Origin: Gammaproteobacteria bacterium
GTDB lineage: Bacteria > Pseudomonadota > Gammaproteobacteria > Pseudomonadales > Pseudohongiellaceae
DNA: 64,000 nucleotides
Reading direction: 5' to 3'
Assembly (NCBI GenBank): GCA_029245395.1
Contig: JAQWPL010000024.1
Span: 90,887-154,886, forward strand
Below the pieces are notes generated by a model, which did no database searches, had not been told where the DNA came from, and saw only the letters and a list, made by a program, of their open reading frames with translations. Below, in pieces: positions 20,787-50,580 of the stretch; positions within the stretch are counted from its first letter, which is position 1; the number at the start of each line of letters is the position of its first letter. Made by a program: the position numbers and the translations under genes.

Positions 20787-20800
20787 TTGTGCTGTCCTGA

Positions 20801-23473: not shown

Positions 23474-23502
23474 TACTGATCCCTTGGGTTGATTCATTTG
23501 TT

Positions 23503-24564: not shown

Positions 24565-24574
24565 AGGTGAGTTC

Positions 24575-25609: not shown

Positions 25610-25914
25610 TTCTTATTCTCATCAAGAACTCTTCTCATTACTTGCCAGTAAGAACCTTAAGGCAAGAGATATTTCATGCAGTATATATATACATATAATA
25701 GTAAGTGGAATCAAAGGGGAGGGGAAGCTTGAAATGAGAAAATGTTGAGCCCCTTTAGTTTGGTTTGCCCTGCAGGTCCGTCAGCCGGCTGACTATCTTT
25801 GGATTTCTTAAGAAAGCTGTACTAATTCCAGCTAGATGCAAGTTTTATTGTCTCTGGAATGTATAACAGTTTAAGATTGCTTTAAACAGCATTGATATCC
25901 GGGAGAATGATCTG

Positions 25915-26946: not shown

Positions 26947-26969
26947 GTTGAGTGACAGAATGCTGACGA

Positions 26970-26992
26970 TGGTGGGCCCACCAAGACTCGAA
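26970..26992 (-). repeat. Partial copy of the tRNA(CAT) 3' end (att-like direct repeat)
   Basis: TGGTGGGCCCACCAAGACTCGAA matches 22 of 23 nt of 48317-48339, the 3' end of the intact tRNA, in the same orientation. Confidence 0.75.
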
Positions 26993-27099
26993 ACGTTTAT
27001 CCTTTAAATATATTTAAATAAAATTACTCTGAGCCTTTGCTCTACTTCATTTTTGGAGTTTACTTGTCAAAACAAAAATTTGAGACGCCGGGGAATATT

Positions 27100-28749
27100 A
27101 TGAGTTTTAAGAAAACACAGTCATGGTCACACATTAATCGACGCCGCTTTCTGAAAATGGGAGCCAAATCTACCGCTGGACTGGCAATGGGTGGGCTTGC
27201 CCTGCCTGGTATGACACAAGATATGCGTCTGACCACCATTGGTGGTATTGCCAGGACGCGGCACGGCCGGGTACGTGGATTACTGAAGGAAGGGGTGCAA
27301 CAGTTTTGGGGAGTCCCTTATGGATCTTCAACTGGTGGAGCCAACCGATTTATGCCGCCACAAGCACCGAAACCCTGGTCTGGCGTGAATGACCACTTCC
27401 AGGTTGGCCAGAATGCTCTGATACAACCGGGAACCAGTGAACCGGCTCCGGTCGTGACGGCATTGAACCGACTCAGTGAACAAGGTGAGGATTGTCTTAG
27501 TGTCAATATCTTCACCCCAGCACTGGATAATGCCGCACGCCCAGTGATGGTGTGGATGCATGGTGGGGGATTCTCGGCTGGGGCAGGCAACTACCTGTTA
27601 TATGACGGCACCAATTTGGCGAAAAAAGAAGATGTGGTTGTGGTTTCAGTTAACCATAGGCTGAATATTTTCGGTTTCTTACATCTGGCAGATATAGGTG
27701 GAGATAAATGGGCGCAATCCACCAATATGGGCGTGCAGGATCTGGTTGCTACCCTGCAATGGGTGAAAGACAATATTGAAAACTTTGGTGGTGATCCGGA
27801 CAGGGTCACCATCTTTGGTCAGTCTGGCGGCGCTGGAAAAACCAACACGGTTATGGCGATGCCGTCAGCGGAAGGGCTGTTTCATCGTTCTGTTGCACAA
27901 AGTGGTTCCGCGTTCAGAGGCACATCGGCAGACGATGCCAGTGAAGCCACCGAACGCTTTCTCGGCAAGCTGGACCTCCGGAACAACCAGCTCGACCAGT
28001 TACAAACCATGGGCTACCGGCAAATTCAGGATGCTTTCTACAGTGAGCCTGCTATTCGCGGTCTTGGCTCAGGGCCAGTGATTGATGGCACTATTCTTCC
28101 TCGCCATCAGTGGGATCCCACAGCGCCATCATATTCTGCCAACGTTCCGTTGATGATGGGTTCCACAGAAACCGAAAACGGCTGGGTAGGGCCTCCGCCT
28201 TATGAGCTATCTGAAGCCGATATGCTTAATCGTTTTGTCACCCGATTGGCGAATAATGATGATGCCAGTGGTGGTCAGTTGCTTGCGCTGTATAAACGTG
28301 TTTATCCAGAAATGCGCAACCAGATGCTTTGGCTGACCGCGGAATCGGACAACACGCGGCGCAGGAATGCCCATACCATGGGTCGACTAAAGTATGAGCA
28401 GGGTACCTCAGAAAGCTATCTGTATTTCTTCGACTGGCATTCCCCGGTGCACAATAATCGTATGGGTTCTTACCATACTCTGGATATTCCCTTTGTGTTT
28501 TACAACATGGATCTGGGCGCATCAATGATGGGAGCGTCACAGGAGCGTTATCAGCTTGGACATGTCATGAGTGCGGCCTGGGCAGCCTTTGCCAGAAATG
28601 GCAATCCGAATCATGCCGACATGCCAACCTGGCCTGCGTTTAATCCCAATGAGTTTCCAACCATGATGTTTGGGGATGAAGTGCGGATGGTTAATGATCC
28701 TAATCGGGAGACGCGTTTGGCGTTGGATGCTTTGCGCGCCAACAGCTGA
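27100..28749 (+). CDS. Carboxylesterase/lipase type B family, Tat signal
   Basis: RRRFLKMG twin-arginine; EDCLSVNIFTP; VWMHGGGF; nucleophile IFGQSGGAG. Confidence 0.9.
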   Translation: MSFKKTQSWSHINRRRFLKMGAKSTAGLAMGGLALPGMTQDMRLTTIGGIARTRHGRVRGLLKEGVQQFWGVPYGSSTGGANRFMPPQAPKPWSGVNDHFQVGQNALIQPGTSEPAPVVTALNRLSEQGEDCLSVNIFTPALDNAARPVMVWMHGGGFSAGAGNYLLYDGTNLAKKEDVVVVSVNHRLNIFGFLHLADIGGDKWAQSTNMGVQDLVATLQWVKDNIENFGGDPDRVTIFGQSGGAGKTNTVMAMPSAEGLFHRSVAQSGSAFRGTSADDASEATERFLGKLDLRNNQLDQLQTMGYRQIQDAFYSEPAIRGLGSGPVIDGTILPRHQWDPTAPSYSANVPLMMGSTETENGWVGPPPYELSEADMLNRFVTRLANNDDASGGQLLALYKRVYPEMRNQMLWLTAESDNTRRRNAHTMGRLKYEQGTSESYLYFFDWHSPVHNNRMGSYHTLDIPFVFYNMDLGASMMGASQERYQLGHVMSAAWAAFARNGNPNHADMPTWPAFNPNEFPTMMFGDEVRMVNDPNRETRLALDALRANS

Positions 28750-28762
28750 ATATAACGGTTTA

Positions 28763-29362
28763 ATGAATAAAAAATCGAAAAGAGGAACACAAATGCTCAG
28801 TTCTCAACGTTCAATTAATAGATTGCGACGCCTAACATTCGCGCTATGCGGAGGCATCTTGTTGGCGATCAGTAGCGTGCTGCCTGTTGCTGCGCAAGTA
28901 CCGATCACAACGCAGGAAACACTCCTGGACCGTCTGCAAATAGAAGACATGTTGCTCGCCTATTATTATGGCTTTGAGGTGGACGAAGGGCATGACTGGA
29001 CCGCACTGTATACGGACGATGCTGTGCTGGATATAAACGGATTGGTGTATGAAGGGAAAACAGAGATACAAGGGCTATACGACAACTACGGAGAAATCTC
29101 TCCAGAGGAAGACGTGCCTGGTAAGGTCCATGTGCTAATGACCAATCCCCGTATCATCGTCAGTGGCAACACGGCAACAGCGCATATGATCTACACGGAA
29201 ATCATGAATGATACGGTATACCTGGCACCACGCTTGATAGAGCAGGGCCGCGAAGATACTGAATTCAGAAAAATAAATGGCAGCTGGTTTATCACCAAAC
29301 GCCTCATCACCCAGGACGGCGGCTTACCACCGGCTTACTTTGATACTTATAAGCCTCGTTAG
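28763..29362 (+). CDS. Exported SnoaL-like / NTF2 family protein
   Basis: Signal peptide. LDRLQIEDMLLAYYYGFE and WFITKRLI are typical of the SnoaL_4 pattern. Confidence 0.6.
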   Translation: MNKKSKRGTQMLSSQRSINRLRRLTFALCGGILLAISSVLPVAAQVPITTQETLLDRLQIEDMLLAYYYGFEVDEGHDWTALYTDDAVLDINGLVYEGKTEIQGLYDNYGEISPEEDVPGKVHVLMTNPRIIVSGNTATAHMIYTEIMNDTVYLAPRLIEQGREDTEFRKINGSWFITKRLITQDGGLPPAYFDTYKPR

Positions 29363-29370
29363 TGTCATGC

Positions 29371-29520
29371 TTGGGAATCGAACGCGACCTGTATACCTTA
29401 CACTACGAAGCGACTATCGATGATCCCGGCGCATACACAGAGGCCTGGACCGTCGCGATGGATATCAACCGGGATCGGGAAGGAGAACTGATCGAATAAA
29501 TCTGTCAGGAAAACAACTAG
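29371..29520 (+). pseudogene. 3'-terminal fragment of a C-module paralogue
   Basis: Translates to GIERDLYTLHYEATIDDPGAYTEAWTVAMDINRDREGELIE*ICQENN*. This aligns with ERITRIDPDMINYSVTVDDPRTFVSPWTF...EYSCHEGN, but it has no N-terminal part and an internal stop at 29497. Confidence 0.7.
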
Positions 29521-29540
29521 TGGGATGGCAGTAATCGGAA

Positions 29541-29576
29541 CAAATAGGGCAAATAGGGCAAATAGGGTAAGTAGGA
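29541..29576. repeat. 9-bp tandem repeat (CAAATAGGG x3 plus a degenerate unit)
   Basis: Read directly from the sequence, upstream of the 2Fe-2S subunit gene. Confidence 0.8.
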
Positions 29577-29640
29577 CAAAGACAAAATCACGGCAATGAT
29601 AAAATTGTTAACTTATATCACTCTTATATAAGGGGAAGGT

Positions 29641-30177
29641 ATGGCGATCATCAGCTTCACGCTCAATGGGAATGTCGAGACAATAGACGTGGTACCCGAT
29701 ATGCCGCTGTTGTGGGCTCTGCGAGATACCCTGGGGCTTACCGGTACCAAATTCGGTTGCGGGATTGCGCAGTGTGGTGCTTGTACCGTGCATTTGGATG
29801 GCGCGCCTGTACGTTCGTGTGTGCTCCCGGTGACAGCTGTGAATGGCAGGAACATTACCACCATCGAAGGCTTGCCTGCTGACATTGGCTCCTCAGTGCA
29901 GCGTGCCTGGCAGGATGTCGATGTGCCGCAGTGCGGGTATTGTCAATCTGGACAAATCATGTCGGCGACTGCACTGCTCAGTGTCAATGCCAACCCAACA
30001 GATACCGAGATCAATTCGGCCATGAACGGCAACATCTGTCGTTGTGGCACCTATCAGGTCATTCGTGAGGCGATTCATCGTGCAGCTGACTATATTGCGG
30101 ACAATGAACTTGCGAGCAATTCACTTGCAACTAATGCACTTGAGAAAAACGAAGACGAAGCAGGAGGTGCCGTATGA
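29641..30177 (+). CDS. [2Fe-2S]-binding small subunit of a molybdenum hydroxylase (IorA-like)
   Basis: [12 protein letters not shown] and [10 protein letters not shown]...CRCGTY cluster motifs. Confidence 0.9.
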
Positions 30178-32285
30178 ACCATCTTCCTTTCAAGCTGGAT
30201 CGTCGTCAATTTCTGGGTTCCAGTGTCGCGACGGCTGGTGGTCTCTTCCTGGGAACAGTCTGGCACAGCGAACTGTCAGCTCAGTTCGGGCGCCCGGCAC
30301 CGGCAGTTGTTCCTGACGCCTTCATTCATATTGGCGCAGACGATATTGTTACCCTGATAATTCACAAGCCTGAAGTGGGTCAGGGCACTGAAACCTCCAT
30401 TGCTATGCTGTTGGCCGAGGAGCTGGATTGTGATTGGGATAAAGTCCGAACCGTTTTTGCCCCCGTTGATGCTGTATACGGGGCACCTTTTCAGGGGACT
30501 GTCGGAAGCATGGCAATACGTACAAGTTGGATGCCCATGCGAATGACTGGCGCCGCTGGCCGCGAAATGCTGATTCAGGCGGCAGCAACTCAATGGGGTA
30601 TTGATCCTTACCGTTGTCGGACCGGCAATAGTCTGGTCACGGATATAGAGACCAATGAAAGTCTCAGTTATGGCAGCCTGGCCGAAGCCGCTTCAACGCT
30701 TGAAGTACCTGATAATCCTCGCCTGAAGGAGGCCAGTGAATTCAACTTGCTGGGCACTCCGGTTAAACGCCGGGATACCGCTGTCAAAATTAACGGGCAG
30801 GCACAATACGGAATTGATATCAGCCTGCCAGGAATGGTCTATGCGGTGTTGGCCAGATGCCCGGTTCCAGGTGGCACACTGCTGAGTTTTGATGTCAGCG
30901 CTACAAAGGCTGTACCCGGCGTTCTGGATGTCATCGAAGTCCCTCAGGGAGTTGCTGTCATTGCCGATAACACCTGGGCTGCCATTTCCGGTCGCAGGGT
31001 GCTTCAGGTACTGTGGGACGAGGGTGAAAATGCCACACTGAATTCAACCGACATCAGTGCGCACCTACATGAACTGGTGTCGCAGCCGGGTGTAGTGGCA
31101 CTCGATAAGGGTGATGCAGACACAGCCCGGGAAGCCACTGTAAAAACTGTTGAAGCGCGTTATGAAGTGCCTTATCTGGCCCATGCGCCGATGGAACCAC
31201 TCAATAGTGTTGCTAGAGTGAATGCTGAAACCTGTGACGTGTGGACCGGCACCCAAATGCCGGGTATTGCACACCTCTCTGCCGTTCAAGCCTGCGGTTT
31301 GCCCGCAGACCAGGTGAATATCCACTCACAATACGTTGGCGGGGGATTTGGCTCTCGAGGCGGCGGTCCTCTGGTAGCCGAAAGCGTCGAGATTGCCAAA
31401 CAACTTGGTGGCGTGCCGGTCAAGCTGTTATGGACTCGCGAGGATGATCTGCAACATGATCGTTTTCGACCCGTTTCCTGCGTTCAATTTAATGCTGGCG
31501 TCGATGCGTCAGGAATTCCAGTGTCATGGAAGGGAACCGTGGCCTGTTCATCTTTCATGGGTTTGCGCGATGGCATTGATCGGGAATCAATTTCTGGCCT
31601 GGCCGAACTTGCCTATGATTTCCCCTATGTCCATTTCCAATACCATGAGCCGGGTATTACAGTTCCCACCAATTATTGGCGCTCGGTCGGGCTTTCCCAG
31701 AATACGTTCTTTGCCGAAAGCTTTATCGATGAGCTTGCCGTACAGGCAGGCATGGATTCGGTTGACTACCGCAGGACATTGCTTGCCGACAATCCGCGGT
31801 TGTTGGCTGTACTCAATCTGGCAGCGGAAAAGGTTGGCTGGAACGGCCCGCCACCAAATGGCAGGTTTCGAGGCGTTGCCGTGATGAATGGTTTCGGCAG
31901 TTTCAATGCGCAGATTGTTGAAATTTCTCTGGAGGCGGAACAGGTACACGTCCATCGTGTGGTGAGTGCTATTGATTGCGGCAGCGTTATTAATCCTGCA
32001 GGTGTTGTTCAGCAGGTGCAAAGTGCAATTGTGTACGGCTTGAGTGCAGCTTTACGGGGCGAGATCACGTTTGAGCAGGGTCGAGTTCAACAGACCAATT
32101 TGCATCAATATGAGCCACTGCGCTTGAAGGAAATGCCGGTAGTAGAAGTGCATATCGTAGCCAGCGATGCCGCGCCGGGAGGTGTTGGAGAATTAGGAAC
32201 ACCAGCAATCGCTCCGGCAGTAACTAATGCCATTTTCAGCGCTACAGGGAAAAGACTACGTCGGCTTCCAATCGACCTTGCATAA
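30174..32285 (+). CDS. Molybdopterin-binding large subunit (IorB-like), Tat signal
   Basis: ATGA overlap with the small subunit gene; [15 protein letters not shown]; [11 protein letters not shown]; [28 protein letters not shown]. Confidence 0.9.
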
Positions 32286-32290
32286 CGAAT

Positions 32291-32335
32291 AAAAGGGGAC
32301 AGTGACTTTTTTAAGAAAAGTCACTGTCCCCTTTT
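32291..32335. terminator. 20-bp perfect inverted repeat, probable bidirectional terminator
   Basis: AAAAGGGGACAGTGACTTTT (32291-32310), loop TTAAG, AAAAGTCACTGTCCCCTTTT (32316-32335), between convergent ORFs. The core resembles the REP-like motif. Confidence 0.65.
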
Positions 32336-32551
32336 ACTGTATTTATATTCTACTAATTCAAAACTGCCTTCGGTTCTTTCTGCTACTTCCAGCATAACTT
32401 CGATAAAGCGATAAGCAGTGGTTCGATATCGTTCTGGTTGTGAAAAATAGACAGGAAACATTTTTGTATGGATACGAATATCAGGTGCCAAATTACTTAT
32501 TATTTGAGCTGCGTCCATGGGAGAGCCAAATTTTGGGGGATTAAGCTGCAT
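32321..32551 (-). CDS. Hypothetical small protein, possibly a gene remnant
   Basis: 76-aa ORF with no recognisable motif. Its last codons lie inside the palindrome arm. Confidence 0.3.
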   Translation of the reverse strand: MQLNPPKFGSPMDAAQIISNLAPDIRIHTKMFPVYFSQPERYRTTAYRFIEVMLEVAERTEGSFELVEYKYSKRGQ

Positions 32552-32575
32552 CAGTTTAGGGGTTGCTCCTGCTCA

Positions 32576-32869
32576 TCATAAACGACGATCTCTTACCTGT
32601 ACGGATGCAATCTCAGAGCCATCGTGATGATAATAGCGGGAGTCTGCACCAACTCTGGCCCCTCGTTGAATTACGGAAGCTTCAAGGCTAAGCCGCTGCA
32701 GTTGACGGACACTGTTCGGGGTCACGAATATGCCGGCTCCCACCTCGCCAAGTTTCGGTGCCTGCTCGTAGACTGTTACATCTAGCCCCTGCGAGATGAG
32801 CGCATTTGCGGTAAACAGCCCTCCGATGCCTCCCCCGACTATGGCTACCCGAAGCGGTTCACTCTTCAT
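32576..32869 (-). pseudogene. Truncated FAD-dependent aromatic monooxygenase (N-terminal ~100 aa only)
   Basis: LRVAIVGGGIGGLFTANAL...VYEQAP..GEVGAGI is the Rossmann N-terminus of salicylate/3-hydroxybenzoate hydroxylase-type enzymes, which are normally about 380-400 aa. The ORF stops after about 97 codons. Confidence 0.6.
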
Positions 32870-33143
32870 TTCTTCCCCTTTATATGTCGTTGTCACTTGT
32901 TGAAACTTTCTGCCAGCAATGAGTAATCAGGTGATAATCATTTCACGAAATCCAATTCCATACTATGTGGCCCTGATTTCCATCTGAAATTGTTCAAAAA
33001 ACAGTTGGGCCCTAGTATAAATTCAATCCTGGTCTTGGTGATCTCGAAGAATTTTTGCCAATCGGGACGTCACCAGGGTCTTTGACGCTCTTCGATTGTG
33101 ATATAACAGGCCTGAATGGGATAGGCGAGGAAGTAAAAACACC

Positions 33144-33896
33144 ATGAATGAAAAAGACAGAGTAATCAATGATCTGGTAATTGCAAACCGCATCCTTGCC
33201 AGGGAGGAGGTGGTTGACGCCTATGGCCATATCTCTATTCGCAATCCGGATAATCCCAATACCTTTTTCATTGCCAGATCACTGGCACCGCAGCTGGTAA
33301 CAGCTGACGATATCGTTGAGCTGGATTTGGATGGAAATCCTGTCAATGACGAGGCGCGCCCTCTTTACCTTGAAAGGTTTATCCATGCGGCCATACTGAA
33401 AGCCCGGCCTGAGATGCATTCGACCGTCCATGCCCATGCGGAAGATATCCTGCCATTTGGTATTGCAAATGGCATACCCCTGCGCCCGGTAATTCATTCC
33501 GGCAGCTTTATAGGAGCCAATGTGCCTGTGTGGGATATCGCTGATAACTTTGGTGACACAAATTTACTGGTAACGAACATGGATCAGGCTGACGATCTGG
33601 CCAGGACCCTGGCAAATAACAATGTCGCATTGATGAGGGGGCATGGCTTTGTCTCTGCTGCCCGTTCACTGATTGAAGCTGTACGCATGTCGGTCTATTT
33701 ACCAAGAAATGCCCGCGTGCTATCTCGTGCAGTTCATCTGGGCGGGGATATCAAGTTTTTGTCTCAGGGTGAAATTGATGCAAGGAATCAGGGTTATAAA
33801 CCCTATTCGCCAGAAACATGGCGTACCTGGGAATATTGGGCCATCAAATGTGACTGTGGTCATATGCTGGTGAAACCCGATGAAAATAACGAATAG
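33144..33896 (+). CDS. Class II aldolase/adducin family protein
   Basis: AYGHISIR, HSTVHAHAEDILPF, LMRGHGFVSAARSL. Confidence 0.8.
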   Translation: MNEKDRVINDLVIANRILAREEVVDAYGHISIRNPDNPNTFFIARSLAPQLVTADDIVELDLDGNPVNDEARPLYLERFIHAAILKARPEMHSTVHAHAEDILPFGIANGIPLRPVIHSGSFIGANVPVWDIADNFGDTNLLVTNMDQADDLARTLANNNVALMRGHGFVSAARSLIEAVRMSVYLPRNARVLSRAVHLGGDIKFLSQGEIDARNQGYKPYSPETWRTWEYWAIKCDCGHMLVKPDENNE

Positions 33897-33967
33897 GAAC
33901 GCGGCAGGAAAAGCTCCATTATCCTGACTCGCGCCGGAACAAAAAGACAATTTACAGGGAACCTTAA

Positions 33968-34951
33968 ATGTTAAAACTATCTTTTGCCTGCGGCCCCTAC
34001 GATAGAACGGAAGCATTGCAATACAAGCGAATAGACGTAGAGGGGATTGACCTAGATTATCTGGAAATCCAGGTCCCACGACAGATTTTTGATCGGATGG
34101 TGGGCGAAAGGGCCTTTGATATGTCCGAACTGTCTCTTTCAGAATATATAGTGATGACTTGCAAAGGTAATAGTCCCTTTGTTGCCCTTCCGGTGTTTCC
34201 GTCAAAATCCTTTCGCCATGGATTTATCACCATCAATGCAAAATCGGGGATCAAAGCGCCCGGGGATCTGGCCGGAAAACGCATTGGCGTTCCTCTTTAT
34301 ACCATGACGGCGGCTATCTGGATTCGTGGTGATCTTCAGAATATCTATGGTGTTGATTTGTCCGATGTCCAATGGATACAAGGCGCCGTCGAAAAACCCG
34401 GCGCACATGGCAACCCCCCCAATGTACCCGTTTTGCTGCAACCGGCGAACATAGTTCAGAACACTTCTGACAAGTCCCTGTCCGAAATGCTCAGGGACGG
34501 GGAAATAGATGCCCTGATTGGTTCTCGGTTGCCCGAAACCATACGCACAGATCCGGACAAGGTAACGCGTTTGTTTCCAAACCCCCGCGAAGAGGAAAAA
34601 CGTTATTACCTTGAACATCATATCCACCCGATCATGCATACGGTCGTCATTCAGCGGAAAATCTATGAAGAGAATAGATGGATTGCCCCCACTCTGTTCA
34701 AGGCTTTCGAGGAAGCAAGAAACTGGGCCATGGAAAGAATGTATTTTTCTGCCGCCCAGCGCTACATGCTGCCTTGGCTATTTGATGACCTGCATGAGGT
34801 TGATGCTGTTTTCGGTAAGGATCTTTGGGCCTATGGCGTGGAAAAAAATCGCTCTACCCTGGAAGCCTTGGTCAACTATATGCAACAACAGCATTTTATC
34901 GAGGAAATAGTGTCGGTTGATGATCTGTTTGTTCCAATACAGGAGTTATGA
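33968..34951 (+). CDS. PhtD-like (4,5-dihydroxyphthalate decarboxylase family) cytoplasmic PBP2-fold protein
   Basis: MLKLSFACGPYDRTEALQYKRIDVEGIDLDYLEIQVPRQIFDRMVGERAFDMSELSLSEY matches my recollection of the PhtD N-terminus. No signal peptide. Confidence 0.55.
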   Translation: MLKLSFACGPYDRTEALQYKRIDVEGIDLDYLEIQVPRQIFDRMVGERAFDMSELSLSEYIVMTCKGNSPFVALPVFPSKSFRHGFITINAKSGIKAPGDLAGKRIGVPLYTMTAAIWIRGDLQNIYGVDLSDVQWIQGAVEKPGAHGNPPNVPVLLQPANIVQNTSDKSLSEMLRDGEIDALIGSRLPETIRTDPDKVTRLFPNPREEEKRYYLEHHIHPIMHTVVIQRKIYEENRWIAPTLFKAFEEARNWAMERMYFSAAQRYMLPWLFDDLHEVDAVFGKDLWAYGVEKNRSTLEALVNYMQQQHFIEEIVSVDDLFVPIQEL

Positions 34952-35083
34952 GGTCAATGGTGAATTCTCGGACAGCGGACATATCAGGTACGATGGATTT
35001 TTCCAACGCCAATGCATGGATGCAGTTTGCAAAAGCTAATCTAATTAACGTAACTTGATAAGCCATTGGAGAAGAGGCAAAAA

Positions 35084-36052: not shown

Positions 36053-36082
36053 CACCAATGAATTTCAGAGCCGGCCCTGTTC

Positions 36083-38058: not shown

Positions 38059-38102
38059 GTTTGATAGTGGCAAGACAAAAAAGCTTCGACATGGCTCCGT
38101 TT

Positions 38103-38520: not shown

Positions 38521-38703
38521 GATGTCCTATTTAAAATTTTAATCCATCATTTGATTAGGGGTAAAACAAGGAATCAAGGGGAACCAGCTACCAGTATGCT
38601 GTTGATGTGTGGACTCGTTACTGTTGCAGGTTTATGCTCCCTTTTATACCTGTATTAATAGAGTAGACGGCAAGAAATGTACGTTGATTTAATAACGGAG
38701 AAA

Positions 38704-39834: not shown

Positions 39835-39863
39835 TAACTGCATCAATAGTACCTGATTAAAAA

Positions 39864-42299
39864 ATGGTCATGGGTTTAAACAACATTTGGAGAAATATCG
39901 GTAGCGTTTTTACCATGCTGCCGGTTGTCCTTTTTATGATGATCGGCTGGAGTCCTTCAGCCATCAGTGCTGATGAACGGCCCGTGAATGGAAATGTCGC
40001 TTACGATAGTCTGGAAGACTGGACAAGTCGCAGTGATCCGGAATTAAATCTTTTAGAGCAATACTGCATGGAGTGCCATAACTCCACGGATTGGGCTGGG
40101 GGCGTGGCCTTTGATTTGATGTCTCTGGAGGAACTGGATCATGACGCCGCCATCTGGGAAGAGGCAGTTCGCAAGCTCCGGGCTGGACTAATGCCCCCCC
40201 AGGGAAAACCGCGACCGGAGCGAGCAATACTTGATGGCATGGCGAAGTGGTTAGGAACCGGCCTGGATCTGGCCTGGGATGTATCGCCCAATCCGGGTGC
40301 GGAACCGGTTTCGCGCCTCAATCGTGAAGAATACAGGAACGCGGTGTGGGATGTGCTGGCGTTCGATGCAGGGGATCTCGTGGGCACGCTTCCTGCGGAC
40401 GAAATTGCAGGAGGCTTTGACAATATCGCACAGGTTCTTAGCATGTCGCCGACTTTGCTTGAAGGCTACCTTTCGGTGGCGATGCAGATCAGTAAGCAAG
40501 CGGTAGGCGATATTGCCACGGTGCCGACACAGGTCGAGTACCGGGCAGGTGGTGGGAATTCTCAACAAGGTTATGTCGAGGGTCTTCCGCTCGGAACACG
40601 TGGGGGCATGATGGTCGAGCATTTCTTCCCCGTTGATGCGAAATACGAGTTTCAGATCTCAGCCAACATCGCTGCCTATGGGCGTAGTCCTGATACCGGG
40701 CGAATGAGTTGGTGTGAAGGCCCCAAAATTGAAGTGATGTTCAATGGTGTCTCCCTGCCAGTGGAAGACCCCACGCAGTTTCGACTTGAAGTACCCGCTG
40801 GTCCACATTCCATTGCATTGGCTCTACTCGATGAGCGTCATTGTATCGGCACCGGCGAGTTCCTCCTCGGCGACACCAACCCGTCAGCCGGAAGTGTCCA
40901 GGGTCTGGAAATCGATGGACCGTACAACATAAGCGGAGCTGGAGACACGCCCAGCAGAAGAGCGATTTTTGTCTGCCAGCCTGATCGTCCAGAAGCGGAA
41001 GAGTCTTGTGCCCGGCAAAACCTTAGTCAACTCGCCACTCGAGCTTATCGGCGCCCGATCGGTACCCAGGATCCGGAAGTCGATACATTGATGCAATTCT
41101 ATGATACGAGCCGCAATGTTGAAGGTGGGAATTTCGAAAGCGGTATTCAGAGCGCACTCACATGGTTGCTTGCGGACCCCAGGTTTCTGTACCGATTCGA
41201 GGAAGAGCCAACTGGTCTAATGGCTGGTGAGGTGTACCGAATCAGTGATATCGAGTTAGCTTCCAGGTTGTCCTTTTTCCTCTGGAGCAGCATCCCGGAT
41301 GAGGCACTGCTGGGATTGGCTGCGCAAGGGGAGCTGGGAGAGGAAGATGTGCTGGAGCGGGAAGTGCAGCGCATGTTGACGGACCCACTCGCGGCTACGC
41401 TTATAGAGAACTTTGTCGGCCAGTGGTTGCTGTTGCGCCAGTTGGAGGAAGCGGTACCGCAAGCCCCGGCATTCGATGCTGACTTGCAGGAAGCCATGCG
41501 GCAGGAGACCTTGCTCTTCTTCCGGAGTCTGGTACGTGAAGACAAAAATCTCCTGAACCTTCTCGACGCTGACTATACCTATTTGAACGAACGTCTCGCG
41601 ACGCACTATGGAATGGAAGGTGTGTGGGGCGGGTACATGCGCAGAGTCGAGCTGCCAGAGGACAGTCCCCGCCGGGGTCTTCTGGGGCACGGTAGCATAC
41701 TGACTGCGACGTCGGTACCGAATCGAACTTCACCGGTGATCAGGGGGGCGTGGATCGTGGAAAACATTCTCGGGGCTCACGTGCCGCTTCCGCCTCCAGG
41801 TGTTGAGACAAATCTCGACCAGCCGGCATCCGGTCAGGATGTGCAGGCTGACACCCTGCGCCAGAGACTGGAGTTGCATCGGGCTGATCCGTCTTGTGCA
41901 TCCTGCCACCAGATTATGGATCCCGTCGGTTTTGCACTGGAGAACTTTGACCTGATCGGTCGTTGGCGCTCACTCGACAATGGGCTGTCAATCAACACAG
42001 CGTCCGAGATGGTAGATGGTACTTATATAGATGGGCCTGCTACATTGCGTGCCGCCCTGTTGGCAAGACCGGAAGCTTTCATGACCTCCATTAGCGAGCG
42101 ATTGCTCACCTACGCGCTGGGAAGGGAGCTGGATCACTTTGACGCGCCTGCGGTGCGACGTATCGTTGAGCAGGCAGTCTCGGAAGGGTTTACCTGGACT
42201 GCGCTGGTGCAGGCGGTTGTGTTGAGCGACCCGTTTCAGCAGCGCATTAAACCGGAAGTAGAGGGCGTGACCACTGCGCAAACTGCCCCCCGGGACTAG
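39864..42299 (+). CDS. DUF1592/DUF1587/DUF1588/DUF1595-type protein with N-terminal CxxCH
   Basis: [23 protein letters not shown]; large alpha-rich body; C-terminal [19 protein letters not shown], typical of this family. Confidence 0.75.
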
Positions 42300-42371
42300 G
42301 GGCTGTGTACACTATGACCCGACATATAGACATATATAGAACAGAGAAAAAAGAACAGAGCAAAAGCTGAT

Positions 42372-43655
42372 ATGAATTATCTGACGAAGAAACATATATC
42401 CCGGCGTAAACTCCTGCGAGGCACTGGCGTTTCACTTGCTCTGCCTTTTCTGGAGTCCATGAATCCGGCCGGGACGCTACGCGCTGCCGAGTTGGGGACA
42501 CCCAGGTCGAGGTTGGCTTGTATCTATATTCCTCATGGCGCAGTTCAGGATCGCTGGGAACCGTCGGCCGTTGGCAGGAACTTTGAGTTCAGTCCGACGC
42601 TGCAGGCCCTGGAGCCATTCCGCGATCACATCAATATTGTCAGCGGTCTGACTTTACCAGCGGCATATGAAGGGGATCCTTCTGCTGGCGCGAATCACCG
42701 TCGTTCTTCCCGGTGCTGGCTTACCTGTGTTGCACCTGGCACTGGCCCGTCACCGACTTCGATGGATCAGGTGGCAGCAGATTACATCGGTCAGGATACG
42801 CAGCTACCTTCACTGGAGCTCTCTCTGGAAGAGCGTTTCTCCATATCCTACCGAACACCCAACAATCCGATGCCTATGCAGGCCAATCCGCGGGTGGTGT
42901 TTGAACGGCTGTTCGGGGACGGCAGTTCTCCGGAAAAACTCGCCGCGCGAAGACAACAAAGGGCGACCATTCTTGATGTCGTACGACAGGAAATTAATTC
43001 TTTGCAGCGCACACTGCCATCAAATGACCGCATCCGGATGGAGCAATACCTGAACGATGTCCGTGAAGTGGAGCGACGCCTGAGCCTGGAAATGGATGCT
43101 TTACCCCGGGAACTGGACCTGCCTGATAGACCATCAGGCATTCCGGATAATTTTGAGGATCATGCGATGATCATGTTCGATTTGATAGCGCTTGCCTGGC
43201 AGGCTGACATAACGCGTGTTTCCACCATGATGTTGGCACAGGAGCTCACTAATCGGGCGTTTCCGCGGAGCGGAGTGAATGAGCCTTTCCATAATTGTTC
43301 CCATCACATGGAAATCGCGGAAAATATAAACCGTCTTGCGACACTTAACGCCTACCATTTGCGCAGCACAATGGGTTATTTCGTCGCCAGGCTGAGCGCG
43401 ACGCCAGACGGAGATGGCTCTCTGCTGGATCATTCCCTGGTAATGTACGGTAGTGGAATGGGCGACTCACAGAATCACAACCACAACTCGCTGCCGGTTG
43501 TGCTTGCGGGCGGCGCATCCGGAAGGGTGGCTGGCGGGAAGCATGTGCGCGTGGACGCCAGCACCCCGATTTCCAATCTTCTGGTAACGATGCTCGACAA
43601 GGTGGGCGTGCCTGTCGACAGGTTTGCAGACAGCAACGGTAGCGTGGATATCTGA
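42372..43655 (+). CDS. DUF1552 family protein, Tat signal
   Basis: SRRKLLRGTGVSLALPFLESM is the family-typical N-terminus. This family usually pairs with DUF1592 genes. Confidence 0.75.
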   Translation: MNYLTKKHISRRKLLRGTGVSLALPFLESMNPAGTLRAAELGTPRSRLACIYIPHGAVQDRWEPSAVGRNFEFSPTLQALEPFRDHINIVSGLTLPAAYEGDPSAGANHRRSSRCWLTCVAPGTGPSPTSMDQVAADYIGQDTQLPSLELSLEERFSISYRTPNNPMPMQANPRVVFERLFGDGSSPEKLAARRQQRATILDVVRQEINSLQRTLPSNDRIRMEQYLNDVREVERRLSLEMDALPRELDLPDRPSGIPDNFEDHAMIMFDLIALAWQADITRVSTMMLAQELTNRAFPRSGVNEPFHNCSHHMEIAENINRLATLNAYHLRSTMGYFVARLSATPDGDGSLLDHSLVMYGSGMGDSQNHNHNSLPVVLAGGASGRVAGGKHVRVDASTPISNLLVTMLDKVGVPVDRFADSNGSVDI

Positions 43656-43674
43656 ACATGGAGGAGACTCTGTC

Positions 43675-45321
43675 GTGAGCATAGTAAAAAGTCGGATATT
43701 GTTTTACCCGTGTTGGTTGTGCGGTGTTCTGTTGATCAGTTCGCTCGCCCAGTTCGGCGGCTCGGCAATTGCCCAGACACTATCCGTGCCGAGACCGGAT
43801 CAGTTGCAGGGTTCACCTGTTGCGGAAGCGGCCAGGCAAGGGGACCGGCAAGCTGTGCAGACATTGCTGGAGCAAGGGCAGGATGTTAACGGCTGGAGCA
43901 GGGATGGCACACCGGCTCTGCACTGGGCAGTACGCGTTAACGACCAGGGTCTGGTCGACATGCTGCTCACTGCGGGTGCAGACGTGGATGGTGCAAATCG
44001 GTATGGGCAAGCCCCCATCCACGTTGCCGTGCAGCATCAACATGCAGACATACTTCAGCGCTTGCTGGAGGCCGGCGCCGATATAGAGACAACGGATGCA
44101 AGCGGAGAGCAGCCGCTGCTCCTGGCAACACGACTTGGTGCTTTCGACATGGTGGAGGCGTTGTTGGCCCACGGGGCGCAGGTAGATGCGCGTGATCTGA
44201 GCTATGGACAATCGGCCCTGATGATTGCCGTGCGAGAGGAAAATTCTGCACTGGTGCAGCGTCTTCTTGGAGCCGGCGCCGATGTCAACGCGCAGAGTCT
44301 GGCTGGTGAGGCAGACAGGTTTATCCTTCCCAGCGAAGTACCTGTGGGGACATCCAAGGGAGTGGGTATCAACCGTATGGGATGGCCGGACCGAGGAATG
44401 CGCCTCCCGATCACCGGAATGAAGACTCCTCTTATGTATGCAACAAGGCAGGGCAATCTTGAACTCACACAAATCCTGGTGGAAGCAGGAGCCGACATCG
44501 AGATTGCGGATGCAAATGGATTCAAGCCTCTGATCAATGCGATCCTTAATCACAGTATAGTGAACGTCAATAGTTCCGGGCAAAGTGAGCACTTGATGAT
44601 TGCCCGGTATTTGATCGAGGCAGGCGCGAACGTCAATGCCCAGGACTGGTATGGGCAAACGCCTCTTTGGGCTGCAGTCGATATTCGAAACCTGTATTTC
44701 CAGGTGACAGCAGCGTCCAATCGGGTGGACAGAGAGTCTGCATACGCGCTGATAGAGTTACTGCTGGCAGCGGGTGCAGATCCGAATTCACGAACAAAAG
44801 AATTCCCTCCCGAAAGGCGCTTTATTGCAGGCACCGGTTCCAACGGGTGGGTCGACATGACGGGACAAACACCATTTCTGCGCGCGTCGCTGGCGGGCGA
44901 TCTGCGGGTATTGCACCTGCTACTCGAGAATGGGGCTGATCCCAGTATCACTACATACGGAGGCACCACTCCGTTAATGGTGGCTGCCGGTATCACCTGG
45001 GCATTCTCGGAAACTTACGATGAAGGCAGTGATGCTCTCCTGGAAACGGTGAAGCTGACACATGCACTTGGACACGGTATCAACGCTGTTAACTCGATGG
45101 GGTTACGAGCGATTCACGGTGCTGCCAATCGCGGATCCAACGACATCATCTCCTACCTGGTGGAGAACGGTGCGCTACTGGATGTGATCGACAATGAAGG
45201 TCGCACGCCCATCGCCTGGGCAGAGGGCGTACTGACGGGGGCGCGAGCGCCGTTCCAGAAGACGGAGACGATCGCACTGTTGCAGGAGTTACAGTCCAGA
45301 GCTCCGTTGCAACTCGAATAA
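43675..45321 (+). CDS. Exported ankyrin-repeat protein
   Basis: GTG 43675 behind GGAGGA; signal peptide ending AIAQ; many GxTPLHxA / LLxxGADVNA repeat units. Confidence 0.8.
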   Translation: MSIVKSRILFYPCWLCGVLLISSLAQFGGSAIAQTLSVPRPDQLQGSPVAEAARQGDRQAVQTLLEQGQDVNGWSRDGTPALHWAVRVNDQGLVDMLLTAGADVDGANRYGQAPIHVAVQHQHADILQRLLEAGADIETTDASGEQPLLLATRLGAFDMVEALLAHGAQVDARDLSYGQSALMIAVREENSALVQRLLGAGADVNAQSLAGEADRFILPSEVPVGTSKGVGINRMGWPDRGMRLPITGMKTPLMYATRQGNLELTQILVEAGADIEIADANGFKPLINAILNHSIVNVNSSGQSEHLMIARYLIEAGANVNAQDWYGQTPLWAAVDIRNLYFQVTAASNRVDRESAYALIELLLAAGADPNSRTKEFPPERRFIAGTGSNGWVDMTGQTPFLRASLAGDLRVLHLLLENGADPSITTYGGTTPLMVAAGITWAFSETYDEGSDALLETVKLTHALGHGINAVNSMGLRAIHGAANRGSNDIISYLVENGALLDVIDNEGRTPIAWAEGVLTGARAPFQKTETIALLQELQSRAPLQLE

Positions 45322-45361
45322 TCTACTTTTATCCAAAATGTTTACATTTGAAAATTGGATC

Positions 45362-45384
45362 AAATGACTCTGACCCCTTTGATT
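45362..45384 (-). repeat. REP-like hairpin repeat, copy f (reverse orientation)
   Basis: AAATGACTCTGACCCCTTTGATT is the reverse complement of AATCAAAGGGGTCAGAGTCATTT. Confidence 0.65.
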
Positions 45385-45562
45385 TACACCTTTGATTTTT
45401 CTCAGACGGTGTTGGTGCTGAAGGGCCCAGAAGTAGCGAAACCAGAGGTGGAACGAGCATTGAGGTGAACCGATAAGTACTTCACTTGGTACGGGTTTTT
45501 ATGCTAGTTTCGGCAGCCTGGAAAAGAAACCCCAAAACAATATTATGAAAAGGGATTAAGTC

Positions 45563-48208
45563 ATGAAATCTGGTCGTTTGTTCATTTATTCATTACTGGC
45601 ATCAGCTTGTTTTGCCTTCAGCGTCCAGGCTCAGGAAGCAGTGAAAAACGGTCCCTGGTCTGATGACTCCATCTGGTCAGAAGGAGAAGTTCCACAAGCG
45701 GGTGGCAGAGTCAACATTGGCGATGATGTCAATGTCGTGCTCGATGTTAGCCCTCCCGCATTGAGTGGCATCACGATCAACGGCAAGCTTAGCTTCTCGG
45801 ATGAGTCAGAGTTTGAATTGACCACTGAGTGGATTCTGGTGTTCGGCGAGCTCGAGATCGGCACCGAAGCCAGGCCTCACACATCCAATGCGACCATTAC
45901 CCTCACCGACAACGTCAAGGATGAGCAACTGATGGGCATGGGCGATCGTGGCATTATGCTCTCGGGTGGCACTCTGAACCTGCACGGTAACCGCACCAAC
46001 GCCTGGACCAAGCTGGCTGAAACCGCCGAAGCTGGTAGCACCTCCATTGAAGTGCTAAGCGCCGATCAATGGCAGGTGGGTGACGAGATCGTTCTCGCTT
46101 CGACGGATTATAATCCGCGGCAGGCCGAAACTCGCCATATCACGGCCATCAGCGGCAACAGCATCTCCCTGGACGAACCTCTGGAGTACATGCACTTCGG
46201 CGAGATTACCTTTGAGGTGGATGAACGCGGTGAAGTGGGACTCCTGACCCGGAACATCAAGGTTCAGTCATCTGAAGATTCGCTTGAGTCATATTTAGGC
46301 GGCCACATCATGGCGATGATCACAAGCAAAATGTATGTAGAAGGTGTTGAACTGCATCGCATGGGCCAGCACCTGGAACTGGCGCGCTATCCGATTCACT
46401 GGCACCTTGTAGGCGATAGCGGTGAAGGCCAGTACGTCCGCAACACTGCCATCCACGACACCTTCAACCGCTGTGTGACCGTGCACGGCACCAATGACCT
46501 GCAGATAGAAAACAACGTGACTTACAACACCGTGGGTCACTGCTTCTTCATGGAAGACGGTATCGAGACCGGCAACGAATTCATCTCAAACCTGGCGATC
46601 CAAACCAAGTGTCATCCCACCATGGAATGCGTTCCATCCAATCTGGCCGCAAACGGTGAGATTGATGTTGAAAACAGCGGTGCACTCAGACAAACCAGTT
46701 TTTCCGGGGAGCATATCCTGCTGCCATCAGATAATACGGTGTCGTCATTCTGGATCACTAACCCAGACAATAGTTACATTGATAACGTGGCTGCAGGTTC
46801 TGATGAGACCGGCTTCTGGTTTTCCCTGCCGCTGCATCCGAATGGCGCCTTTCTGGGCTCAGAAGATAGCCTGAACACCTGGCCGCGCCGAACGCCGCTG
46901 CGCGCATTCAGAGGCAACGTGTCTCATTCCAACTTCGACGGGTTCATGATTGACCGGCACATCAACGAAGATAACACCTTCGGTCTGGCCTCCATTCCGT
47001 TGCTGCCGTTGGCAAATCCTGCTGACCTGGAAAGCGAAGCGTTGGAGACGCACTTCGAGAACTTGACCTCCTACAAGAACCGCAATGGGGGTCTCTGGGG
47101 CCGGGGCGACCTCTACATATACAGCAACTTGAAACTCGCTGACAATGCCATTGGCATGACGCAGGCCGCTGGCGACATCGGCACCTCACGGTTTAGTTCA
47201 CGGCTGGTTGATTCGCTGGTCGTGGGCGAGACCGATAATATCGGCAATCCCACGACGCCGGAGGAAGTCGCCTACGGTCGCAGCCTGCCGAAGCCTCCCA
47301 TTCCGGATTTCCCCATCCGCGGCTACGAATACTATGACTACCGCGATGATGTGGTGAACACGACATTCGTGAATTTCCAGGACAATGACAGGCGCAAAAC
47401 AGGCGCGCTGTCCTTCCTGCTATTCACGAGCGCGGGGCTCAGTACTGGAAGCACGATCAGCGGTGCGCAATTCGTCAACGCCAAGCCGGTCTATTTCCCG
47501 AATTTCGATCTCCGGTTCGATAATGATAACCGCGGCGGCGACGCATATCGGACCCTGTCGTTCCGCGACCTGGACGGCTCAGTGACCGGCATCCCCGATT
47601 CCCAAGTCATGCTCCACGATGGCGAGCACGACAGTGTCGTCACCGACGACACCTGTGAAATCCATCCCACCTGGAACGCCTCTGTGTGTACGGGTGATAT
47701 CGGTCGCCTGAATCTCTCGGACAGTAGAGGATGGCTTCCAGGCGCAGTCGATCTCGAATCCCGGACCGCTCGGTACGCTTTGCTCTCTTCGCTCGGTCCA
47801 AATGCTCCAGACACTCCCCTCGTTCAGGCCCAACGTGCCGCTCTGTTTTCTCGTCGTGCTCCGCAGGCACCTATCGCGCTTGTTCGCAATGGCAAGGAAT
47901 TCAAGATATTCGGCGACCAGAGCACTGTGAAAGCCGGCACCGAGATACAGGTAAAAACCGAAAGGCAGGAAGTCACTCTCAGTCTGACCGAAATGGAACA
48001 GGGCTCATGGGTCATATTTGAACTGCCGGGTTTCACCAATGCAGCTACCGGAACCGAACAAGGCAGCATGGACGCATTGCACCAGGTGAACGAGACGTCC
48101 TATTTCAACGACGGAGCTACCATGTGGGTCAAGCTGGTGGCCGATGCTCCGGTCATGGAGATCATTCGTCCAACGGATCTGCAAGCCAGTATAACGGTCA
48201 GCCGCTAG
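45563..48208 (+). CDS. Secreted G8-domain / right-handed beta-helix protein, CEMIP/TMEM2-like
   Basis: Signal peptide. G8-like WSDDSIWSEGEVPQAGGRVNIGDDVNVVLDVSPPALSGITINGKLSF. ARYPIHWHLVGDSGEGQYVRNTAIHDTFNRCVTVHGT...GHCFFMEDGIETGNEF matches the conserved core I recall from CEMIP-type proteins. Confidence 0.75.
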   Translation: MKSGRLFIYSLLASACFAFSVQAQEAVKNGPWSDDSIWSEGEVPQAGGRVNIGDDVNVVLDVSPPALSGITINGKLSFSDESEFELTTEWILVFGELEIGTEARPHTSNATITLTDNVKDEQLMGMGDRGIMLSGGTLNLHGNRTNAWTKLAETAEAGSTSIEVLSADQWQVGDEIVLASTDYNPRQAETRHITAISGNSISLDEPLEYMHFGEITFEVDERGEVGLLTRNIKVQSSEDSLESYLGGHIMAMITSKMYVEGVELHRMGQHLELARYPIHWHLVGDSGEGQYVRNTAIHDTFNRCVTVHGTNDLQIENNVTYNTVGHCFFMEDGIETGNEFISNLAIQTKCHPTMECVPSNLAANGEIDVENSGALRQTSFSGEHILLPSDNTVSSFWITNPDNSYIDNVAAGSDETGFWFSLPLHPNGAFLGSEDSLNTWPRRTPLRAFRGNVSHSNFDGFMIDRHINEDNTFGLASIPLLPLANPADLESEALETHFENLTSYKNRNGGLWGRGDLYIYSNLKLADNAIGMTQAAGDIGTSRFSSRLVDSLVVGETDNIGNPTTPEEVAYGRSLPKPPIPDFPIRGYEYYDYRDDVVNTTFVNFQDNDRRKTGALSFLLFTSAGLSTGSTISGAQFVNAKPVYFPNFDLRFDNDNRGGDAYRTLSFRDLDGSVTGIPDSQVMLHDGEHDSVVTDDTCEIHPTWNASVCTGDIGRLNLSDSRGWLPGAVDLESRTARYALLSSLGPNAPDTPLVQAQRAALFSRRAPQAPIALVRNGKEFKIFGDQSTVKAGTEIQVKTERQEVTLSLTEMEQGSWVIFELPGFTNAATGTEQGSMDALHQVNETSYFNDGATMWVKLVADAPVMEIIRPTDLQASITVSR

Positions 48209-48232
48209 GCCAGATCCAGCCTGAAAACAAAG

Positions 48233-48262
48233 CCCTCGGCATTCATGCCGGGGGTATTTTTA
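48233..48262 (+). terminator. Rho-independent terminator
   Basis: CCCTCGGCAT-TC-ATGCCGGGGG followed by TATTTTTA, 25 nt after the stop. Confidence 0.7.
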
Positions 48263-48274
48263 TTACAGACTATG

Positions 48275-48301
48275 AATCAAAGGGGCCAGAGTAACTTGAT
48301 T
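48275..48301 (+). repeat. REP-like hairpin repeat, copy g
   Basis: AATCAA-AGGGGCCAGAGTAAC-TTGATT. Confidence 0.65.
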
Positions 48302-48316
48302 TGGCGGAATGGAAAA

Positions 48317-48393
48317 TGGTGGGCCCACCAGGACTCGAACCTGGGACAAACGGATTATGAGTCCGTTGCTCTAACCAACTGAGCTATAGGCCC
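48317..48393 (-). tRNA. tRNA with CAT anticodon (elongator Met or lysidine-modified Ile2)
   Basis: 77 nt: GGGCCTA-TA-GCTC-AGTTGGTTA-GAGC-A-ACGGA-CTCATAA-TCCGT-TTGTC-CCAGG-TTCGAGT-CCTGG-TGGGCCC-ACCA. The cloverleaf folds by hand. Not initiator-like: no three G-C pairs in the anticodon stem and 1-72 is paired. Confidence 0.9.
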
Positions 48394-50460: not shown

Positions 50461-50520
50461 TGCCAGGATTCTGTTTGTAAGAAATTGCGTTGTATCGATA
50501 AATAATTTTTTTATAATCAT

Positions 50521-50579: not shown

Positions 50580-50580
50580 T

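Follow-up and report, generated by a model that had tools for sequence, protein, structure and literature searches.

A probable long-used and decayed integration hotspot, with a later mosaic insertion, at a tRNA(CAT) gene of a marine gammaproteobacterium

An intact tRNA gene (tDNA) accompanied by a displaced fragment of itself is the signature of a genomic island (Hudson, Lau and Williams 2015, PMC4383910). Integration sites within tRNA genes fall into sublocation classes (bioRxiv 10.1101/2020.11.02.365908), among them the classes of Williams 2002 in the form in which that preprint and PMC4383910 cite them, and the anticodon loop and the T-loop are the two symmetric sublocations used by tyrosine integrases (bioRxiv 10.1101/2020.11.02.365908; PMC4383910). 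In addition, element decay and tandem accretion at a single target have been described for islands derived from ICEs (integrative and conjugative elements) and IMEs (integrative and mobilizable elements), and for cis-mobilizable elements (CIMEs) (PMC5704250). Here we compare with these systems a 64,000-nucleotide stretch of DNA (the window; positions 90,887 to 154,886 of contig JAQWPL010000024.1, assembly GCA_029245395.1), whose host belongs to a poorly known marine lineage related to Pseudohongiellaceae. The window carries a tRNA(CAT) gene and, some 21 kb away, a 23-nt direct repeat of its 3' end. The original prediction, made from the sequence alone, took the segment between them (26970–48393) for one relic genomic island in the tRNA.

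The window is probably a long-used, decayed, multi-layer integration hotspot at an ileX-like tRNA(CAT), with a later mosaic wedge of 18.3 kb. The predicted attachment (att)-type scar and the lack of an integrase are borne out, but 26970–48393 does not hold up as a single integrated element. The following features define the right end of the locus and the scar at its repeat:

48317–48393, minus strand: intact tRNA(CAT), putative target of integration, which closes the accreted zone on the right (ARAGORN, E. coli matches, rpoD–tRNA order)
26970–26992, minus strand: scar B core, a 23-nt copy of the tRNA 3' end (22/23), with a homologous copy at the same place in relatives L081 and L082
26993–27008, minus strand: first 16 nt (ACGTTTATCCTTTAAA) of the ~70-nt insert of the relatives' composite scar (blastn endpoints, alignment)

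ARAGORN finds only this one tRNA in the 64-kb window. Its closest E. coli matches are annotated as tRNA-Ile, and rpoD followed by tRNA(CAT) is the order in 10 of the 11 gammaproteobacterial loci scanned; because of these matches and its position downstream of rpoD, it is probably an ileX-like tRNA-Ile2. Read on the plus strand, its 3' end at 48317–48339 is TGGTGGGCCCACCAGGACTCGAA, to which the repeat at 26970–26992, TGGTGGGCCCACCAAGACTCGAA, is identical at 22 of 23 positions. The match runs from the CCA and ends after GAA within the T-loop. It lies in tRNA orientation (direct) and on the 3' side of the tRNA, as expected of a displaced tRNA 3' end. The site is intergenic, 23 nt beyond the stop codon of the 25915–26946 gene, and overlaps no conserved coding-sequence domain; its interval to the tRNA, 21,324 bp, is inside the 2–200 kb Islander length range. 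When up to three mismatches were allowed, these two sites were the only ones in the window, and 100 dinucleotide-preserving shuffles gave no match to the repeat. The repeat itself is thereby confirmed by ARAGORN, the mismatch search and the shuffles, and it is a genuine tRNA-derived att-type integration scar; homologous scars occupy the same or equivalent places in relatives.

Among GTDB genomes scanned by rpoD, the nearest are metagenome-assembled genomes (MAGs) of Pseudohongiellaceae and Pseudomonadales with 77–78% RpoD identity, which have nothing in common with the window locus beyond the tRNA and are useless as an empty-site test. Neither RpoD nor the DUF6152-343 protein of the window has an exact match in the protein collection. 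The closer relatives, given here by L numbers, are metagenomic contigs only. L081 (JGI 3300010883) matches window 22611–27008 at 91.4% nucleotide identity, a stretch that spans a metallo-beta-lactamase-fold gene, a C-module gene, a VanA-type Rieske gene and the DUF6152-343 gene (25915–26946). Its scar, TGGTGGGCCCACTAGAACTTGAA, differs from the tRNA at 3 positions, and L081 also keeps the 16 nt that follow. L082, an independent 1.2-kb contig, has the same junction. Both contigs share the left flank, the scar and the 16 nt with the window at 91–94% identity and then diverge, homology ending at 27008/27009 (blastn endpoints). Past this breakpoint L081 has genes that the window lacks: TPR, tannase, SBP_bac_3, cupin, Rieske, SnoaL_4 and PdxA.

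In L081, L108 and L101/L102/L159 the scar is composite, and this form is present in four lineages. It consists of 23–25 tRNA-like nucleotides, an insert of ~70 nt (GTTTATCCTTTAAAGG...GATGAATG) and then ACAAACGGATTATGAGT, the rest of the 46-nt tRNA 3' half up to the anticodon loop. The window holds just the first 16 nt of the ~70-nt insert, and by alignment its 23-mer is the stump, or truncated start, of such a scar, which would be older than the window's split from several relatives. In L108 the full scar stands ~95 nt ahead of sequence homologous to the region upstream of the window's G8 gene, with homology resuming at window 45339 by BLAST and at ~45322 by eye. The order in L102 is VanA-Rieske orthologue (72% amino-acid identity), MarR, scar, G8', G8; that of the window is VanA-Rieske, DUF6152-343, truncated scar, 18.3 kb, G8, tRNA. 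Since the full scar adjoins G8 in L108 and L102, 27009–45321 appears to have come between the old scar and G8, its former neighbour.

The tRNA of the window has G8 next to it, and several other lineages keep G8 beside this tRNA or a copy of its 3' half:

45322–48214, plus strand: G8 gene with ~240 nt of upstream region, next to the composite scar (L108, L102) or to the tRNA or a 46–48-nt scar (L161, L096, L098/L099, L104/L105)
L161: G8 at 96% nucleotide identity; downstream a hairpin, a 46-nt tRNA 3'-half copy and unrelated genes (DCC1-like, photolyase-related DPRP, DUF2805)
L096: G8 at 92% nucleotide identity; downstream arrangement that of L161
L098/L099: G8 at 82% amino-acid identity; a 48-nt scar identical to the window tRNA, then TonB receptor, sulfotransferase, BCCT, MarR and beta-lactamase genes
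L104/L105: G8 at 80% amino-acid identity; 2.1 kb, intact tRNA, DUF6152 and a 262-aa gene, LysR, rpoD, dnaG

No integrase was found in the ~10 kb past the scar of L098/L099. In these lineages newer insertions would have pushed G8 and the old tRNA end outward. The G8/CEMIP-beta-helix protein itself (45563–48208; loci L095–L174) is unusually conserved, at 70–83% amino-acid identity across marine and other environmental metagenome contigs; its gene has a third-codon-position GC (GC3) of 0.65 and is frequently duplicated in tandem. In many unrelated contigs DUF6152 and C-module genes stand no more than a few kb from G8, which suggests that they are functionally linked.

The gene content listed earlier for the enclosed ~21.3 kb is essentially right by Pfam, which also gives the calls below except for the two fragments:

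27009–38100, plus strand: wedge block 1, esterase to TctCAB, including a repetitive extragenic palindrome (REP)-like hairpin; GC 0.496, like the left flank
27037–28749: carboxylesterase
28670–29362: SnoaL_4
29395–29517: C-module fragment
29641–32285: Fer2 and MoCoBD, IorAB-like pair
32576–32896, minus strand: FAD-binding fragment
33144–33896: class II aldolase
33968–34951: NMT1-like
35066–38058: TctC, TctA, TctB
38164–38448, plus strand: truncated IS3-family transposase orfA (HTH_Tnp_1) without orfB, at the junction of the compositional halves
38677–45321, plus strand: wedge block 2 (fused DUF6152, DUF1592-type, DUF1552, ankyrin); GC 0.543, distinct tetranucleotide profile
38677–39834: fused DUF6152
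39864–42299: DUF1592-type (PSD)
42372–43655: DUF1552
43624–45321: ankyrin
45563–48208: G8

Several signs mark the wedge as a mosaic: the IS3 orfA remnant, the C-module and FAD-binding fragments, and a GC step. Orthologues of its esterase (84–92% amino-acid identity) occur in three other contexts or gene orders (L192, L195, L196). The esterase's own upstream region begins within 8 nt of the 27008/27009 breakpoint, and in L195 that region stands after SnoaL and a hairpin. The join of the 18.3 kb would therefore not have been att-mediated, since the left breakpoint lies 16 nt beyond the core, since the esterase upstream region starts at the breakpoint and follows SnoaL and the hairpin in L195, and since the truncated IS3 separates two compositionally different halves.

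Searches for mobility genes came back negative. Pfam finds no integrase in any large open reading frame (ORF) across 1–53 kb and no relaxase or type IV secretion system (T4SS) domain in 14.7–48.3 kb. A tblastn search of the window with seven recombinases from att-core viral contigs gave a best E of 0.38, setting aside the tRNA-sequence overlap of one serine recombinase ORF (L184, below), and a custom tyrosine-integrase hidden Markov model (HMM) run on all 1234 six-frame fragments of the window gave a best E of 0.66. No phage structural, replication or packaging gene is found, the Pfam content being metabolic, transport and periplasmic only. Nor is there a second insertion sequence (IS) copy or an orfB; the single truncated orfA at 38164–38448 does not make an IS3 composite transposon. 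Integrase remnants, and with them tandem integrase-bearing islands, were considered as an explanation and rejected when the tblastn and HMM searches came up empty. On the same searches the predicted lack of an integrase stands, and the segment cannot move itself. It is today probably fixed chromosomal DNA and not a mobilizable unit: it lacks an integrase, its left att site is truncated, and its metabolic cargo is ordinary and host-like.

A second, more degenerate tRNA copy lies further left, with the following features around it:

14729–14774, minus strand: scar A, older and degenerate, reproducing the 3' half of the tRNA from its end as far as the anticodon loop (37/46; blastn-short, alignments)
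14693–14728, plus strand: flank of scar A with dispersed motif AAAGGGGCAAGAGTAACTT, also found at 48279–48297 beside the intact tRNA
48273–48300, plus strand: motif GAATCAAAGGGGCCAGAGTAACTTGATT, which belongs to the dispersed motif family, in the 3' flank of the tRNA
14821–17351: three-gene DUF6152 module (DUF6152, C-module, C'-module), directly right of scar A
17352–26969: older accreted segment (fused DUF6152, low-GC ORF, MFS, metallo-beta-lactamase fold, C-module, VanA-type Rieske, fused DUF6152 at 25915–26946)

Scar A with its flank has a local alignment score of 41.5, the maximum in 40 simulated windows being 19; it is direct with the tRNA and ends exactly at the anticodon-loop boundary. 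Orthologues of the DUF6152 module (72–80% amino-acid identity) lie 580 nt from the tRNA 3' end in L084, a relative with 89–93% RpoD amino-acid identity. The 17352–26969 segment is absent between module and tRNA there, and 22611–27008 is common to L081. Relative to L084 the window has ~31 kb extra (17.4–48.3 kb). Because of scar A and the position of the module in L084, a putative tRNA-associated accreted zone would cover roughly 14.7–48.3 kb, so that the left boundary proposed for the island at the 23-nt repeat is well inside it.

The anticodon loop recurs as an end point. Scars in L161, L096, L098/L099, L113 and L191 end independently at the same anticodon-loop position as scar A, and a tRNA 5'-half copy in L084 (9705–9744) also ends in this loop. 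The 3' scars and this 5'-half copy overlap solely in the loop sequence CTCATAA, as would be expected from a 7-nt crossover region. The L084 copy closes a 4.9-kb two-gene block (4745–9744; a 983-aa protein and DUF1501) that stands between the intact tRNA and the 40–46-nt 5'-half copy, an upstream-side insertion without an integrase. L191 has its 46-nt tRNA(CAT) 3'-half scar at 2049–2094, with 91% identity; it is inverted relative to the DUF6152-344 gene close by, and its sulfatase/aminotransferase surroundings bear no relation to the window.

The motif beside scar A and the tRNA, AAAGGGGNCAGAGTNACTT(GAT), resembles one arm of the hairpin described below and has 6 matches in the window against 0.15 expected. 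Its sites are 14697–14715, 20758–20776, 45362–45380 (minus strand) and 48279–48297, with degenerate copies near 25708–25752 and 27024–27046. Apart from the copies at the tRNA and scar A, they stand upstream, at ~60–250 nt, of G8, the esterase, the DUF6152-343 gene and the 19717–20499 ORF. The motif is possibly a half-REP, or else a regulatory or promoter element that these sites have in common. The shared flank of scar A and the tRNA had been considered as proof of their common origin; it was downgraded, the motif recurring at 20758, 45362 and the 32.3-kb hairpin.

A mechanism can be proposed from the anatomy of the scars and from what is known of tDNA integration. Tyrosine integrases of incoming elements would have recombined an element-borne 3' part of a tRNA with the tRNA gene, crossing over in the anticodon loop (46-nt identity block) or the T-loop (23–28-nt block). 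Each event would have regenerated the tRNA and displaced its original 3' end outward as a scar, of which two would survive in the window, A (14729–14774) and B (26970–26992), both direct with the tRNA. The DNA between the composite scar and the tRNA may originally have held little beyond the G8 gene. In the window's lineage the 18.3-kb mosaic at 27009–45321 would have joined later at a TTTAAA site, 16 nt past the core, deleting the rest of scar B. IS3-associated and illegitimate or repeat-mediated recombination, and not att recombination, is the likely route of this join.

Tyrosine integrases for this exact tRNA-end sequence exist. A 25-mer of the tRNA end has 16 matches in IMG/VR, and an exact 45-nt pattern covering the 46-nt att core has none there. 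In six IMG/VR contigs a PF00589 integrase stands directly beside an exact 28-nt copy of the tRNA 3' end, without the full tRNA; a search for the att core beside integrases in other genomes had been proposed with the original prediction. In a further IMG/VR contig (L184, 10732–12267) a large serine recombinase ORF (Resolvase, Recombinase, Zn_ribbon_recom) crosses an exact 31-nt copy of the 3' end of the tRNA; according to the Islander paper (PMC4383910), no serine recombinase is known to have tDNAs as its target.

Composition gives the interval no coherent foreign-island signature. The GC contents along the window are:

1–14.7 kb: 0.506
14.8–27.0 kb: 0.468
27.0–38.1 kb: 0.496
38.65–45.3 kb: 0.543
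G8 unit: 0.535
right flank: 0.469

The GC step falls at ~38.6 kb. The 27.0–38.1 kb part is closest in tetranucleotide profile to the left flank at 1–14.7 kb (distance 9.9), whereas 38.65–48.3 kb is distinct (GC 0.54, tetranucleotide distance 24–26 to segments S2 and S6). A comparison of 26993–48316 with its flanks, proposed with the original prediction, gives a split picture: 38.7–48.3 kb is GC-rich, and 27.0–38.1 kb resembles the left flank. The most foreign-looking gene of the window by composition is the 19717–20499 ORF in the older accreted segment (minus strand; GC 0.365, GC3 0.32), which has no significant Pfam match, with TSP_3 alone below threshold (E=0.0087).

How far can another history account for the same facts? 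That 26993–48316 is one genomic island, integrated whole through the 23-nt core and later deprived of its integrase and excisionase, is unlikely, even though the architecture of an intact tRNA, a direct 22/23 repeat on its 3' side and 21.3 kb between them fits such an island. Pseudogenes and the IS remnant fit its decay, the tRNA-proximal 9.6 kb is GC-rich, and integrases of viral contigs use T-loop-type cores of this sequence. What speaks against it is the content of the relatives: L081 and L082 keep the scar and 16 nt with unrelated genes to the right, the 23-mer is a cut-down form of a composite scar whose full versions in L108 and L102 stand upstream of G8, and G8 neighbours the tRNA or a 46–48-nt copy of it across divergent relatives. 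The relatives thus keep the repeat without the 21 kb, the inverse of the pattern (21 kb kept without the repeat) that had been named as telling against the island. The expected arrangement in island-free relatives, with the tRNA directly beside the 25915–26946 gene, was seen in no relative contig examined, and no empty site was found. In addition, 27.0–38.1 kb matches the left flank in composition, the esterase block is joined, at most 8 nt from the breakpoint, to the upstream region that belongs to it, a region that in L195 follows SnoaL and the hairpin, and the DUF6152/C-module family lies on both sides of the repeat, in the segment and its flanks alike (2.9–4.0, 14.8–18.5, 23.5–24.6, 25.9–26.9, 29.4–29.5 and 38.7–39.8 kb). 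That the pattern is an artefact, with the 23-mer matching by chance or a chimeric join in the metagenomic assembly at 27008/27009, is extremely unlikely. The scar-to-esterase junction of the window was indeed seen in no other sample, but chance is excluded by the 0/100 shuffles and by the homologous scars in relatives, there is no long repeat at the junction to mislead an assembler, and clade-specific motifs and gene families are common to its two sides.

Several points weigh against a decayed hotspot with a later wedge. The close relatives, all of them short metagenomic contigs, showed no intact element with an integrase at this tRNA, and the full putative ancestral order (scar, G8, tRNA) stands on no single one of them but is pieced together from different contigs. 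L102 has no tRNA or scar within 8.8 kb after G8. The similarity of the scar A and tRNA flanks is partly the dispersed motif and is weak evidence of common descent. The left neighbours of the composite scar differ (DUF6152-343, MarR, CPBP with hairpin), each abutting the tRNA 3' end within ~20 nt, which is not easily explained by purely vertical inheritance of one scar and leaves room for repeated integration of related elements or mobilization in trans. It is quite unlikely that units bounded by tRNA halves are still moved in trans as CIME-like integrase-less cassettes, or that the scar is a dispersed tRNA-derived repeat spread by another enzyme. Such movement would suit the integrase-less blocks between a tRNA and a half-tRNA copy (in the window, in L084 and over ~10 kb after the L098 scar), the way in which the composite scar, as one unit, recurs in four lineages beside various left neighbours, the inverted 46-nt scar of L191 in another context and the Y1 transposase gene of a related MAG contig (L083); yet no circular or empty-site junction was observed, both window scars are direct and lie inside the tRNA-proximal zone, scar divergence (70–83%) is about that of neighbouring genes and fits passive inheritance, and the truncated scar B is unlikely to be a working att site. 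We would give little credence to a bolder form, in which the tRNA-Ile2(CAT) locus of this uncultured marine clade is an integron-like landing pad for integrase-less one- to two-gene cassettes exchanged in trans. In this form, very unlikely as a whole, each cassette would be bounded by a tRNA half, as in G8 with the composite scar or in the L084 pair of the 983-aa protein and DUF1501 with its 5' half; integrases encoded elsewhere would capture the cassettes by crossover in the anticodon loop or T-loop, and the clade-specific REP-like hairpin and motif would mark their borders.

Besides the motif, a ~45-nt clade-specific palindrome (AAAGGGGACAGTGACTTTTT...AAAAGTCACTGTCCCCTTT) recurs at these loci, with a 22-bp perfect stem, a folding energy of -34 kcal/mol and z = -9.7. 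It occurs at 32291–32335 in the window and in L095 (3268–3312), L096 (308–356, 3102–3150), L104 (4555–4600), L108 (362–406, 3513–3562), L161 (1940–1988), L192 (8587–8631) and L195 (240–280). The copies stand at gene ends, often directly after G8, and coincide with several synteny breakpoints; the palindrome looks like a REP-like bidirectional terminator. The Y1 transposase gene of L083, a related Pseudohongiellaceae MAG contig, lies at 12165–12875 beside DUF6152 and G8 genes. It belongs to PF01797, which we take to be the family that includes the REP-associated tyrosine transposases (RAYTs), and it may be linked to the REP-like hairpins.

To the right of the tRNA the gene order is conserved:

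48867–49796, plus strand: LysR regulator, which opens the conserved right flank (LysR, rpoD, dnaG, onward) by synteny
51568–53403, minus strand: rpoD
53551–55338, minus strand: dnaG

From LysR on, this flank is syntenic with L084/L085/L086 up to ~62 kb, and megablast against plasmids gives rpoD as its sole match. The closest LysR relative is on a 1.1-kb contig, too short for context. Between LysR and rpoD the window has a DsbA-like thioredoxin gene, a 110-aa ORF and an extracytoplasmic function (ECF)-type sigma factor (49834–51373); they are absent in L084, L087 and L104, where LysR abuts rpoD directly, and are a distinct insertion of 1.7 kb, on the far side of the tRNA.

The locus is a new instance of a well-known phenomenon and reveals no new mechanism. 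For island calling it shows that the DNA between a clean tRNA and direct repeat may never have moved in one piece, since scars survive longer than their elements and later rearrangements fill the interval. One ileX-like tRNA has here been used in at least two sublocation classes (T-loop and anticodon loop), with a 5'-side insertion in L084 besides, and the lineage's DUF6152, G8 and DUF1592–DUF1552 repertoire is heavily shuffled around the site.

Like the tDNA islands of Islander, the window has an intact tRNA and a direct displaced 3' fragment at its ends, and its identity blocks end in the T-loop (23–25 nt) or the anticodon loop (46 nt). In the Islander view two or more scars at the same tRNA suggest an array in tandem; the window has two. 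Unlike Islander islands, neither interval holds an integrase, which leads Islander to discard a candidate; the left scar breaks off 16 nt beyond the core, and the enclosed DNA, when compared with relatives, does not look like one element and has no phage or conjugation genes. Nor is it a genomic island in the comparative sense, since the close relatives compared do not have it or lack it as a whole, with the att repeats as breakpoints. CIMEs, as PMC5704250 reviews them from Pavlovic 2004 and Bellanger 2011, resemble it in that integration and transfer genes are lost and att-type repeats bracket what is left, and tandem accretion (PMC5704250) resembles it in that successive site-specific integrations at the same target build decayed arrays. 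Unlike CIMEs, the window has no ICE or IME trace (no relaxase, T4SS or oriT-associated genes) and neither it nor its close relatives showed a partner element that carries a cognate integrase; the window's attL is degenerate and truncated, with a core of 22/23 that diverges from the relatives' scars 16 nt beyond. The non-functional tRNA gene fragments of prokaryotes, at least as outlined in PMC9897764, are likewise partial copies, as found in the window near the intact parent. Unlike the fragments outlined there, those of the window can be traced across relatives to specific breakpoints, and one of them is composite, with a ~70-nt insert.

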